Notes: generated by a model not told the origin, from the sequence alone. 64,000 bases of DNA from an uncultured Cytophagaceae bacterium (GCA_903907745.1 CAIVPF010000035.1:7215-71214), one strand, 5' to 3'; shown: positions 14,862-35,146, counted from the first letter of the stretch. Translations and numbers: made by a program.

Positions 14862-15083
14862 TTAGGTAATAAGTAATAGGTATTAGGTAATAAGTAATAG
14901 GTATTAGGTATTAGGTAATAGGTAACAGGTATTAGGTAACAGGTAATAGGTATTAGGTAACAGGTAACAGGTAATAGGTAGCAGGTAATAGGTAACAGGT
15001 AATAGGTAGCAGGTAATAGGTAGCAGGTGATAGGTAGCAGGTAATACTTATTACTTATTACTTAATACCTAATAAATACCTAA
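14862..15083. repeat. Heptamer tandem array with inverted arm: 26 x AGGTAAT-like units (14864-15045), then about 5 inverted units (ATTACTT/AATACCT)
   Basis: Read directly: units AGGTAAT, AAGTAAT, AGGTATT, AGGTAAC, AGGTAGC, AGGTGAT in exact 7-nt register; ends TTAGGTA...TACCTAA; lies between convergent guaA and pepT. Confidence 0.97.
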
Positions 15084-32284: not shown

Positions 32285-32292
32285 TATCTTTG
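32285..32292 (+). promoter_or_regulatory. Bacteroidota -7 promoter box (TATCTTTG) upstream of lysA
   Basis: Exact TAnnTTTG, 18 nt upstream of ATG 32311. Confidence 0.55.
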
Positions 32293-32310
32293 TCGCTTAA
32301 TTTAAAACCC

Positions 32311-33546
32311 ATGGCTTATTATTCCATTCAAGGTATTCCATTGACATCGCTAGCTAAGGAGTTTGCTACACCCTTATATGTGTATGATGCCGACAAAATT
32401 AGGGAAAAAATTTCAGTTCTTAGAAGCTCTTTTCAAGGTTTTCCTTTGTCGATTAAATATGCCTGTAAAGCAAATACCAATCTAGCCATTTTGCGGCTCA
32501 TGCTTGCGAATAAGGTTGATTTGGATGTGGTGTCTCCCCAAGAATTGGAATTAGGATTAATGGCCGGGTATGAAGGTTCTCAAATCACTTTTACGCCTAG
32601 TGGGGTTGATTTTTCTGAAATCGAGTTTGCGGTCTCCAAAGGGGCCATGGTGAATTTAGATAATTTGTCTGTGCTCGAGAAATTTGGTCAGGCTTATGGG
32701 AATTCAGTTTCATGCCTTATTCGCATTAAACCCCATGTATTTGGTGGCGGAAATGCAAAAATCATGACGGCGCATCCGGAATCTAAATTTGGAATTTCCA
32801 TTCATCAAAAGGAGGAAATTCTAGCAATTGTCCAGCGATATGGGATTCAGGTCTCTGGTTTGCATCAGCATACTGGCTCTGATATCAAAGACGGAAAGAC
32901 GTTCCAACAAGCCGCCTCTGCACTCTTTGATTTTGCAAAGGATTTCAAGGATTTGGAAATCATCGACTTAGGCGGTGGTTTTAAAGTACCTTATTCTCCC
33001 GAAGACCCGGGCGTGGATATGCAGGAGGTAGGAGGATTAATGAGTCGGGCCTTTTTAGATTTTTGCGCAAGCTACGGTCGGCCCTTGCGGCTTTGGATCG
33101 AACCGGGGAAATTTTTGGTTTCCGAGGCTGGGACTTTTTTGGCCCAGGCCACTGTGGTGAAAAAAGACCCTATAAAGACCTTTTTGGGGATAAATACGGG
33201 GTTAAATCACCTTATTCGGCCCATGATGTATGGATCCTATCATTACATCTTCAATGCATCGAATACGAATTCATCTGAGCAGGAAAATTATCGGATTGTA
33301 GGAAATATCTGCGAAACAGATACTTTTTCCTTTGATTACGATGGCAACCAAAACGAGCGGATGTTAAATAAGGTCCAAGAAGGCGACGTCATCGCCCTTG
33401 CCAATGCCGGCGCCTACGGATTTACTATGGCCTCCCACTATAATTCAAGATTTCTGCCAGCGGAAGTACTCATTGATCAAGGCAAAGCCGTTATCATTCG
33501 GAAGAGAGAGACATTGGATGATTTAACTAGAAACCAAGTTTTTTAG
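32311..33546 (+). CDS. lysA: Diaminopimelate decarboxylase
   Basis: TPLYVYD, KYACKAN (PLP Lys), SKFGI, HTGS, DLGGGF, EPGKFLV, GNICETD, GAYGFTMASHYN. Confidence 0.96.
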   Translation: MAYYSIQGIPLTSLAKEFATPLYVYDADKIREKISVLRSSFQGFPLSIKYACKANTNLAILRLMLANKVDLDVVSPQELELGLMAGYEGSQITFTPSGVDFSEIEFAVSKGAMVNLDNLSVLEKFGQAYGNSVSCLIRIKPHVFGGGNAKIMTAHPESKFGISIHQKEEILAIVQRYGIQVSGLHQHTGSDIKDGKTFQQAASALFDFAKDFKDLEIIDLGGGFKVPYSPEDPGVDMQEVGGLMSRAFLDFCASYGRPLRLWIEPGKFLVSEAGTFLAQATVVKKDPIKTFLGINTGLNHLIRPMMYGSYHYIFNASNTNSSEQENYRIVGNICETDTFSFDYDGNQNERMLNKVQEGDVIALANAGAYGFTMASHYNSRFLPAEVLIDQGKAVIIRKRETLDDLTRNQVF

Positions 33547-33719
33547 GTAATTGGTATCAGGTAATAGGTAATAGGTATCAGGTAATAGGTAATAAGTAAT
33601 AGGTAATAAGTAATAGGTACCAGGTATAAAGTAATAGGTACCAGGTATAAAGTAATAGGTATCAAGTAAGATGTATTACCTATTACTTATTACCTATTAC
33701 CTGATACCTATTTACCTAA
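33543..33719. repeat. Second heptamer array with inverted arm: 18 x AGGTAAT-like units (33545-33670), ATGT spacer, 6 inverted units (ATTACCT/ATTACTT/GATACCT/TTTACCT)
   Basis: Read directly; same consensus and TTAGGTA...TACCTAA ends as 14862-15083; lies between convergent lysA and the ATP-grasp gene. Confidence 0.97.
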
Positions 33720-35146
33720 TAAAGCACCCAAGTATCCTTAGAGCCCCCTCCTTGGGAGGAATTAACCACGAGCGAATCCTTTCGTAAGGCGACCCTAGTC
33801 AATCCCCCTGGCATCACATTTACGCCGTCGCCATATAAAATATAGGGTCTCAAGTCCACGTGGCGGCCTTCGGCATGATCGTCGATCAGGCAAGGCACAC
33901 GGGAAAGCGAAATGGTGGGTTGGGCGATGTAATTCCGTGGATTCGCCACGATGTATTTTTTGAATTTTTCTTGTTCTTCTTTGGTGGATTTCGGGCCGAT
34001 CAGCATTCCATAACCGCCCGCCTCATTCGCTTCTTTTACCACCAAATCAGCAATATTTTCCAAGACATATTTCATGTCATCCGCCTCGCTACAAATATAG
34101 GTTTTGACATTAGGGATGATCGGATCTTCGCCTAAATAATATTTGATAATTCGAGGTACATAGGCATAAATCACTTTATCGTCCGCTACGCCTGTTCCCG
34201 GGGCATTTGCGATGGCCACTTTACCGTTTTTATAGACCTCGAAAATACCTGGTATCCCGATTAATGAATCAGGGTTGAAGGTATTGGGGTCTAAAAAAGT
34301 ATCGTCGATCCGGCGATAAATCACGTCCACGATTTGGAAGCCTTTGGTCGTACGCATTTTGACATAGCCTTCATGAACGACTAAATCGCGGGCGTCGACT
34401 AATTCCACGCCCATTTGTTGGGCTAAATAGGAATGCTCAAAATACGCTGAATTATAGATTCCGGGCGTCAACACCACCACGGTAGGTTCCGGCCTGTCGC
34501 TGATGAAGCGAAGCATTTCCAGTAATTTATGTGGGTAATCCGAAATAGGCCGAATTTGTGTTTTTGCCACAACTTCCGGGAAGGTTTGTTTTAATAATTC
34601 CCGATTTTCCATCATGTAGGAAACGCCCGATGGACAACGTAAATTATCTTCCAAAATCATATATTCACCATCATTCCCCCGGATCAGGTCAGTTCCGGTG
34701 ATGTGAATCCAAATGTTTTTAGGAGGTTTAATACCCATGCAAGGTTCCAAGAAATTTTTGGAGGAATAGATAACTTCCCGGGGAATGATTCCGTCTTTGA
34801 TGATTTTTTGATCAGAATATATATCGGCCAAAAATAAGTTCAAAGCGGTAATTCGTTGGATCAAGCCTTTCTCCATCTTTTCCCATTCCTGCGCATGCAC
34901 GATGCGGGGGATGATATCCACGGGCATAATACGTTCGGTTCCTTCGTTTTCAGAATAGACGTCGAAGGTTATGCCCATCGCCATTAAAGCGCGTTCGGCG
35001 GAAATTTGACGCCTTTGAAATTCCACTTTGGTTAATTGTTCAACGCGATCTTTAAAATGCTGATAACCCGGTCTTATGTCACCTGAGGGCGTAAACATTT
35101 CATCATAGAATCCTTCGTTATCGTATTTTTCAAATGAAAAGTTCAT
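33716..35146 (-). CDS. Circularly permuted type 2 ATP-grasp protein
   Basis: YDEM, ITFDVY, DIIPRI, TDLIR, LEDNLRCPSGVSY, LTPGIYNSAYFEH, IYRRIDD, ANAPGTGVADDK, RHVDLRP, PGGLTRVAL, VVNSSQGGGSKDTWV. Confidence 0.93.
   Translation of the reverse strand: MNFSFEKYDNEGFYDEMFTPSGDIRPGYQHFKDRVEQLTKVEFQRRQISAERALMAMGITFDVYSENEGTERIMPVDIIPRIVHAQEWEKMEKGLIQRITALNLFLADIYSDQKIIKDGIIPREVIYSSKNFLEPCMGIKPPKNIWIHITGTDLIRGNDGEYMILEDNLRCPSGVSYMMENRELLKQTFPEVVAKTQIRPISDYPHKLLEMLRFISDRPEPTVVVLTPGIYNSAYFEHSYLAQQMGVELVDARDLVVHEGYVKMRTTKGFQIVDVIYRRIDDTFLDPNTFNPDSLIGIPGIFEVYKNGKVAIANAPGTGVADDKVIYAYVPRIIKYYLGEDPIIPNVKTYICSEADDMKYVLENIADLVVKEANEAGGYGMLIGPKSTKEEQEKFKKYIVANPRNYIAQPTISLSRVPCLIDDHAEGRHVDLRPYILYGDGVNVMPGGLTRVALRKDSLVVNSSQGGGSKDTWVLY

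Follow-up and report, generated by a model that had tools for sequence, protein, structure and literature searches.

Between the convergent genes lysA and an ATP-grasp gene, the 64,000-nt window analysed here, part of a metagenome-assembled genome (MAG) of the freshwater Bacteroidota genus Aquirufa, carries a tandem array of AGGTAAT-type heptamers. Our analysis indicates that this focal element is probably an old copy of a dispersed, non-coding, palindromic family of AGGTAAT heptamers, one that would form an RNase III-type stem in both messenger RNAs (mRNAs) and is not an intrinsic terminator. Coordinates are window-based unless a contig (C) or locus (L) is named. The focal genome assembly (G000) comprises 2.79 Mb in 165 contigs, with 42% G+C and 93% completeness. 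It was assembled from short reads, by which the copy number in a tandem array of ~130 nt is possibly slightly misassembled, so that the exact unit counts given below may be slightly off. The relatives of the window lysA are found in Aquirufa and other freshwater MAGs of the Cytophagaceae/Spirosomataceae, order Cytophagales.

Anatomy of the element at the lysA junction

The genes and the parts of the element are as follows.

32290-33546, plus strand: lysA, diaminopimelate decarboxylase (TIGR01048, 360.9 bits against a cut-off of 297.9)
33544-33546, plus strand: lysA stop codon TAG, overlapping the first repeat word, TAGGTAA
33545-33670, plus strand: long arm, 18 in-register AGGTAAT-family heptamers (direct reading, Tandem Repeats Finder (TRF) and pattern scan)
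33570-33608, plus strand: left half of a perfect 39-bp inverted repeat, made of outer forward units that include the variants AGGTATC and AAGTAAT in mirrored order
33609-33673, plus strand: interior or loop segment, 65 nt, a one-sided expansion of the long arm that holds all array-specific units
33671-33674: centre of the element, ATGT, 4 nt, between the long and short arms
33674-33712, plus strand: right half of the perfect 39-bp inverted repeat, 100% complementary to the left half and 65 nt from it
33675-33717, minus strand: short arm, six inverted ATTACCT-type units, the last of 8 nt (one extra T)
33716-35146, minus strand: circularly permuted ATP-grasp gene (PF14403, E 2e-166)

The initial annotation of this DNA had described 18 forward and 6 inverted heptamers that fill the entire space between the two genes, from one stop codon to the other. 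Reading of the sequence, TRF and a pattern scan all confirmed this description. The element starts on the lysA TAG (33544-33546), the stop codon of the ATP-grasp gene (CTA on the plus strand, 33716-33718) adjoins the final inverted unit, and the 169-nt gap between the two stops is repeat throughout. The final two lysA codons, V-F (GTT TTT), belong to the T-run found ahead of many arrays of the family, and the C-terminus of the ATP-grasp protein, ...KDTWVLY, is conserved among relatives. TRF returned a period of 7 (16.9 copies), a stronger period of 21 (5.9 copies, 87% matches) and the inverted arm (6.3 copies). A two-unit pattern with at most two mismatches matched the window 36 times, compared with 0.33 expected matches, and 0 of 100 shuffled sequences reached 36.

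The short arm finds its partner not in the adjacent forward units but in those farther out, over 39 nt with 100% complementarity. In the interior thus enclosed, the block AAGTAAT-AGGTACC-AGGTATA occurs twice exactly, followed by a degenerate third copy and then by the centre ATGT. These duplications of a 21-nt block, which affect the inner side of only one arm, account for the asymmetry of 18 versus 6 units. All of the variant units attributed to this array (AGGTATC, AGGTACC, AGGTATA, TGGTATC and AAGTAAG) were present, and the restriction of AGGTACC and AGGTATA to the 65-nt interior, with its exact 21-nt block duplication between mirrored arms, supports the local expansion that had been proposed.

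A sister copy of the element lies in the same window.

14863-15079, plus strand: 26 forward and 4-5 inverted units, filling another convergent junction

Here, the best partner of the short arm is likewise the outermost set of forward units (91% over 33 nt, at a distance of 135 nt), and AGGTAAC and AGGTAGC, the variants private to this array, appear only farther inward than these mirrored units. Both window arrays consist of an outer palindrome plus a one-sided inner expansion, and therefore their variant units differ, as had been noticed at the outset: AGGTATT, AGGTAAC, AGGTAGC and a single AGGTGAT characterize the 14863-15079 array. The accompanying proposal of a shared seed understated the relationship of the two arrays, because they are 2 of ~11 copies of a palindromic family, most of whose sites are old and also occupied in a sister species.

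No ORF lies between the focal arms, which enclose only the 4-nt centre and the 65-nt interior of repeat units. Direct reading showed that the AGGTAAT strand contains TAG and TAA, by which all three of its frames are shut, and that the complementary strand is open. Given the outward-facing orientation of the arms, any ORF reading into the element is therefore stopped, and neither flanking ORF is extended.

Distribution, conserved core and age of the AGGTAAT family

A scan of the focal genome for three or more in-register units detected 34 arms at ~12 places, corresponding to ~11 loci, since synteny with a sister species (G032) showed that two of these places are the sides of a single contig break. 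AGGTAAT is the sole 7-nt tandem family of note in this genome. Array length ranged from 3 to 34 units, and in all seven two-armed copies the forward arm preceded the inverted arm. The copies occupy convergent and co-directional junctions and one divergent junction, at least nine of them within a few bases of a stop codon, and a T-run lies ahead of the first unit at roughly 8 of 19 arm ends. The possibility that arrays cause contig breaks, and that further copies are hidden there, was rejected because units occurred at only 1 of 330 contig ends. The end of C97 (C97:1900-2171) is a fold-back, in which unique flank is inverted on both sides of a short heptamer hairpin, and is probably an assembly artefact. 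By synteny with the sister species it adjoins the start of C125 (C125:1-400), and the contig therefore broke inside an array.

Constraint within the unit was measured on 220 units from 21 arms of the focal genome, collected with a position-neutral filter (at most two mismatches anywhere). The consensus frequencies at positions 1 to 7 were 0.995, 0.74, 0.98, 0.99, 0.97, 0.66 and 0.82, and the numbers of arms with any variant at these positions were 1, 19, 3, 2, 5, 19 and 17. An independent set of 191 units from the sister species yielded the same profile, which held at sites private to that genome as well. Thus, the A.GTA core stays the same whichever arm, locus or species is considered, and the drift is at positions 2, 6 and 7. 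Constraint, suggested earlier for the first five bases, is real, but the constrained set comprises positions 1, 3, 4 and 5, and position 2 varies. The even spread of variation over unit positions that would have pointed to a neutral microsatellite was not observed, as the profile was strongly uneven in both genomes. Units ending in G amounted to ~4% in the focal genome versus ~18% in the sister species, at shared and private sites alike, and inspection of orthologous arrays of the two genomes revealed no locus-specific variant units common to both. The variant spectra look genome-specific, not locus-specific, as might result from exchange between arrays or from a bias acting throughout the genome.

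The age of the array sites was assessed by mapping the flanks of 20 array regions of the sister species (the genome that contains L009) onto the focal genome. Fifteen sites had both flanks colinear; seven of these hold an array in both genomes, including the focal and 14.9-kb junctions, and eight are array-free junctions in the focal genome, most of only 12-55 nt. The C97/C125 contig break lies within an eighth shared site. Flank identity between the two genomes was 68-84% at all shared sites but one, and the genes flanking the focal element were ~75-80% identical. Alignment of the junction with relatives, which had been proposed as a check, thus found the orthologous junction of the sister species occupied by an array of the same family; the focal junction thus held an AGGTAA[TG] element as early as the common ancestor of the two species. 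In the array of the sister species, 6 forward and 7 inverted units enclose a ~70-nt central segment that is missing in the focal genome. The focal element is therefore old and positionally stable, but its internal layout is not stable.

The junction was surveyed in 25 loci in which lysA and the ATP-grasp gene are still convergent. In two of them (L001 and L044), the convergent stops overlap by two bases (TTAG or TTAA), leaving no intergenic DNA. Spacers of 55-329 nt separate the genes in the other 23; 22 of these spacers are strongly structured (z <= -3.8) and one is a one-armed array. AGGTAA[TG] arrays, with or without a central segment, occupy the junctions of L002, L003 and L005-L010, and other heptamers occur elsewhere, namely ATGGTAA (A. 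rosea), TAAGAGT, TAACGTC/GACGTTA, TAAGAGG and TAGAGTA. The remaining spacers hold GC hairpins resembling repetitive extragenic palindromic (REP) sequences or classic terminators, and the contents vary by lineage. The REP-like hairpin family (AGACGCGA...TCGCGTCT, often after GTAG) was seen at L004, L011, L020, L028, L030, L031, L034, L042 and L047. At L004 and L011, it follows the same GTTTTT that precedes the heptamer array of the window, as if the array had been replaced.

AGGTAAT arrays were absent from the whole genomes of L001 and L044, the closest lysA relatives, and present in those of L003, L006 and L011. Over 41 genomes of the genus, matches to the unit were bimodal, with 42-184 in eight genomes and 0-7 in the other 33. 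Within the genus, only one sub-lineage carries the AGGTAAT family.

A second repeat family was also observed in the focal genome. It is built on the word GGTTTGCCAAAG / CTTTGGCAA, is palindrome-like, has periods of 11-28 nt and lies at these positions:

C63:38124-40403
C73:248-357
C101:50-111
C112:8127-8235

The same family occurs at the lysA junction of other Aquirufa (L035, L041, L043 and L045).

PF05635 cassettes with heptamer arms

The focal genome contains exactly one PF05635/TIGR02436 gene (C137:4338-4697), of the family named "23S rRNA intervening-sequence protein", which encodes a four-helix bundle of 119-120 aa (PF05635, 84 bits; TIGR02436, 100 bits; PDB 2RLD, E 3e-27). It lies in the convergent mutS/NAD-kinase junction (C137:4290-4862) between two AGGTAAT arms.

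C137:4297-4331: forward AGGTAAT arm
C137:4810-4858: inverted AGGTAAT arm

An orthologous cassette with AGGTAAT arms was found in G014. Because arms of the same kind enclose this gene, the sole PF05635 gene of the genome, the focal copy appears to be a relative of the cassette that lacks a gene. Nearly all of 43 PF05635 loci from 26 genomes of the order were bracketed by inverted tandem arrays with units of 7 nt or small multiples. Within the genus, PF05635 protein clades match arm-unit families; this match may reflect vertical inheritance, because each protein clade sits at one genomic position. The unit families that bracket PF05635 genes are words found at gene-less lysA junctions. G001 and G010 have AATGGTR cassettes together with 52-69 AATGGTR matches, and G004 and G005 have neither. 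At the hemE/engB junction, 10 loci of other Aquirufa carry PF05635 cassettes with the words CAGTRGT, AGTCCGGAGG (15-mers) and TAGTCGC. The divergent hemE/engB junction of the focal genome (C103:1048-1392) is occupied by a gene-less AGGTAAT palindrome of 26 forward and 10 inverted units with a centre of ~85 nt.

Two further observations concern what lies between such arms. In Sandaracinomonas limnophila (G003), each of six PF05635 genes (L067, L072-L076) has a different inverted-array unit, namely a GAGCCAGT-type 17-mer, a 24-mer, GGTTAAT, TGTTAAT, GTTGAAA and GTAAGAG. In the sister species, the centre of a two-armed AGGTAAT element (L112:6683-6946) is a classic terminator-like hairpin with a T-run plus a second GC hairpin; thus, not only genes but also ordinary intergenic features can be enclosed by such arms.

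Possible function, rival explanations and related repeats

Predicted RNA folding of the focal element gave -77.8 and -80.3 kcal/mol (z -9.0 and -11.8 relative to shuffled controls), and predicted DNA folding gave -41.2 kcal/mol (z -8.5). A scan of positions 33300-33950 found no terminator-like site. The stem is followed by a U-tract on neither strand; the plus strand has a T-run 5′ of the stem, and the minus strand has an A-run after it. Because it has no U-tract, the element is not a canonical terminator, and a rho-independent (intrinsic) terminator was rejected. In Rfam 15, no family reached its gathering threshold, and the only resemblance, below threshold, was to long miRNA-precursor hairpins. 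The gene for RNase III (rnc) is present in the focal genome.

In the history that we consider probable, slippage or unequal exchange would lengthen and shorten the arrays by 7, 14 or 21 nt at a time, and either mutual copying or selection on the core would maintain the likeness of the arms and arrays within a genome. Located in the 3′ ends of both mRNAs, the focal element would fold into a stem of ~40 bp, which RNase III may cut, as it does the stems with heptamers in those 23S rRNA intervening sequences (IVSs) that carry an ORF. Given such a stem in both 3′ ends, any role would be one in 3′-end processing or insulation, not in rho-independent termination.

Several observations weigh against this interpretation, or against the kinship with the cassette that goes with it. 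The genomes with overlapping stops (L001 and L044) show that a hairpin is dispensable at the lysA junction. No PF05635 gene was found in five AGGTAAT-rich relatives, one of which is 98% complete in 30 contigs, and G016 has many AATGGTR arrays without a matching cassette; the gene is therefore not needed for array persistence, and its candidacy as an obligatory partner is weakened. Array-rich G012 does have PF05635 cassettes, but with different arms. The spacers of gene-less copies hold only heptamer matches and no remnant of a PF05635 gene or cassette, and the central segments at different loci share no convincing similarity, only orthologous centres being alignable.

The rival explanations differ in what they ask of the array. 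It is very unlikely that a chance seed near a stop codon was simply expanded by replication slippage into a neutral microsatellite with no family, constraint or function. In its favour, duplicated blocks of 7, 14 and 21 nt can be seen, orthologous arrays vary widely in copy number, and heptamers are the commonest long simple-repeat unit in bacteria, which the summary of Mrazek 2007 in PMC4679880 ascribes to polymerase slippage. However, AGGTAAT is found at ~11 loci as the only 7-nt family of the genome, the mirrored orientation recurs in 7/7 two-armed copies, the 39-bp mirror keeps the order of variant units, and the unit has been kept at orthologous sites despite 16-32% flank divergence; the position-specific variation in two species largely refutes a neutral origin. 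A classical miniature inverted-repeat transposable element (MITE), that is, a non-autonomous transposon with terminal inverted repeats, a target-site duplication and a transposase encoded elsewhere, would account for the palindrome, for the eight sister-species sites that are array-free in the focal genome and for the T-run before the first unit at some arm ends. A TA duplication could explain the TA on both sides of the focal copy, as against TTAG/TTAA where the site is empty, but this TA is uninformative because it is part of the unit. Moreover, a duplication is not seen consistently at other pairs of filled and empty junctions, copies from different loci have heptamers but no internal sequence in common, and arm lengths vary freely, which makes a MITE highly improbable.

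Two further explanations assign the array a function. The stem might be a selected cis-acting RNA element that ends, insulates or stabilises both convergent transcripts, as a bidirectional terminator substitute or as an RNase III/3′-exonuclease barrier. This would fit the strongly structured spacer in 22 of the 23 syntenic relatives having one, despite differing sequence families, as well as a stem that begins at both stop codons and an outward-facing strand with TAG and TAA in all frames that leaves neither ORF extended. We nevertheless consider such selection unlikely, since U-tract, terminator-like site and Rfam family at threshold are all lacking and the T-run is on the 5′ side, L001 and L044 manage with overlapping stops, the same elements fill a divergent junction and co-directional junctions, and a junction that serves as a tolerated landing site explains the pattern equally well. 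Alternatively, the A.GTA core could be the binding word of a trans-acting protein, most plausibly the pentameric, Avd-like PF05635 four-helix-bundle protein whose gene lies in a copy with matching arms, in a relationship similar to that of REPIN and RAYT (see below). In favour of this are the single PF05635 gene flanked by the only heptamer family of the focal genome, the match between protein clades and arm-unit families, the use of cassette words at gene-less lysA junctions, the joint presence or absence of AATGGTR cassettes and arrays (G001 and G010 versus G004 and G005), the hemE/engB junction with its gene in 10 loci elsewhere and its gene-less palindrome here, and the relationship of PF05635 to Avd (PMC10053308). 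Protein recognition of the array is quite unlikely, however, considering the five array-rich genomes that lack the gene, the mismatched arms in G012, the arrays without a matching cassette in G016, and the vertical co-inheritance by which one genomic position per clade can explain the clade-unit match. It is likewise unlikely that heptamer-armed palindromes and PF05635 genes form one system, in which the protein would recognise the A.GTA core in DNA or in the transcribed stem and gene-less copies would be non-autonomous satellites that outlive loss of the gene.

The old, palindromic, dispersed family that we favour belongs to a class of repeats already known from cyanobacteria, Xanthomonas and other Bacteroidota, and poorly understood; the literature searched contained no description of such arrays in Aquirufa. 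Cyanobacterial short tandemly repeated repetitive (STRR) heptamers were reportedly described by Mazel et al. in 1990 with the units CCCCAGT, TTGGTCA and CAACAGT. Like AGGTAAT, STRR sequences and the long simple repeats of 5-11 nt in bacteria (Mrazek et al. 2007 as summarised in PMC4679880) consist of 7-nt units that are specific to a lineage and tandemly arrayed between genes at many loci, with no established function. Unlike AGGTAAT, the STRR are mostly described as one-armed, have no reported link to a bracketed gene and belong to another group of organisms; a cyanobacterial origin (STRR proper) of the focal array was rejected on the evidence of the lysA relatives, which are Aquirufa and other Cytophagales. 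TAACTGA direct repeats occur in Beggiatoaceae, cyanobacteria and five Bacteroidetes (MacGregor 2015, PMC4679880). These heptamers (up to 43 copies) resemble AGGTAAT in being intergenic, patchily distributed among lineages and present in some Bacteroidetes, but they are a different word, form short direct sets mainly just upstream of start codons and have no palindromic layout.

Close parallels are the GGGAATC heptamers of Xanthomonas and GGGGAYT of Nostoc, which are dispersed tandem repeats enriched in non-coding DNA and located <=50 bp from stops (Rehm et al. 2015, PMC4692102). According to the same report, many opposite-strand pairs in Xanthomonas are "in convergent orientation" (70 and 75 cases), most repeats are transcribed, and between related species the number of units shifts while the type (single or inverted pair) is kept. 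The AGGTAAT arrays are likewise tandem, dispersed, mostly non-coding, stop-adjacent and built as convergent pairs of a lineage-specific unit. They differ in that the Xanthomonas and Nostoc units are G-rich, form G-quadruplexes and prefer four units, whereas AGGTAAT has only GG in arrays of 3-34 units and falls outside that subclass; without a G-tract, a duplex stem is the only plausible structure here. Aquirufa, moreover, is a member of the Bacteroidota, and its arms fill the whole spacer. In the IVS of Coxiella burnetii, which carries S23p, a 28-bp stem is cut by RNase III and the heptamer GACAGAT is tandemly repeated in strain-variable number (PMC4990558). The C137 cassette resembles it, with a PF05635/S23p gene bracketed by complementary ends. 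The focal element has no ORF, is not in an rRNA gene and has long arrays as arms instead of unique inverted repeats. In Proteobacteria, REP sequences, bacterial interspersed mosaic elements (BIMEs) and REP doublets forming hairpins (REPINs) are dispersed intergenic hairpins just after stops, in lineage-specific families, and a single-copy gene, that for RAYT, is flanked by the repeat. REPs are unique palindromes of 20-40 nt, and RAYT is a transposase-type (IS200/IS605-like) enzyme. AGGTAAT shares with them the hairpins after stops, the single-copy gene flanked by the repeat and the lineage-specific sequences, but it is a tandem heptamer, and the gene between its arms is PF05635, not a transposase, and is missing in five array-rich relatives. 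PF05635 is not known to have an activity.

Among the long simple repeats of bacteria, heptamer arrays are the commonest, and they are still unexplained. The AGGTAAT family offers a clean, small system, with one unit family, ~11 loci and one candidate partner gene, in a genus with cultured species that have analogous arrays (A. rosea, ATGGTAA). Any mechanism must fit an A.GTA core that is invariant across species with 16-32% divergence in the coding flanks, arms that always face each other and the persistence of arrays in genomes without PF05635. For annotation, such arrays supply or adjoin stop codons and can create false ORFs on their open strand. If the palindromes and the PF05635 genes did prove to be one system, a function would be gained both for the long-unexplained bacterial heptamer repeats and for the "IVS protein" family.

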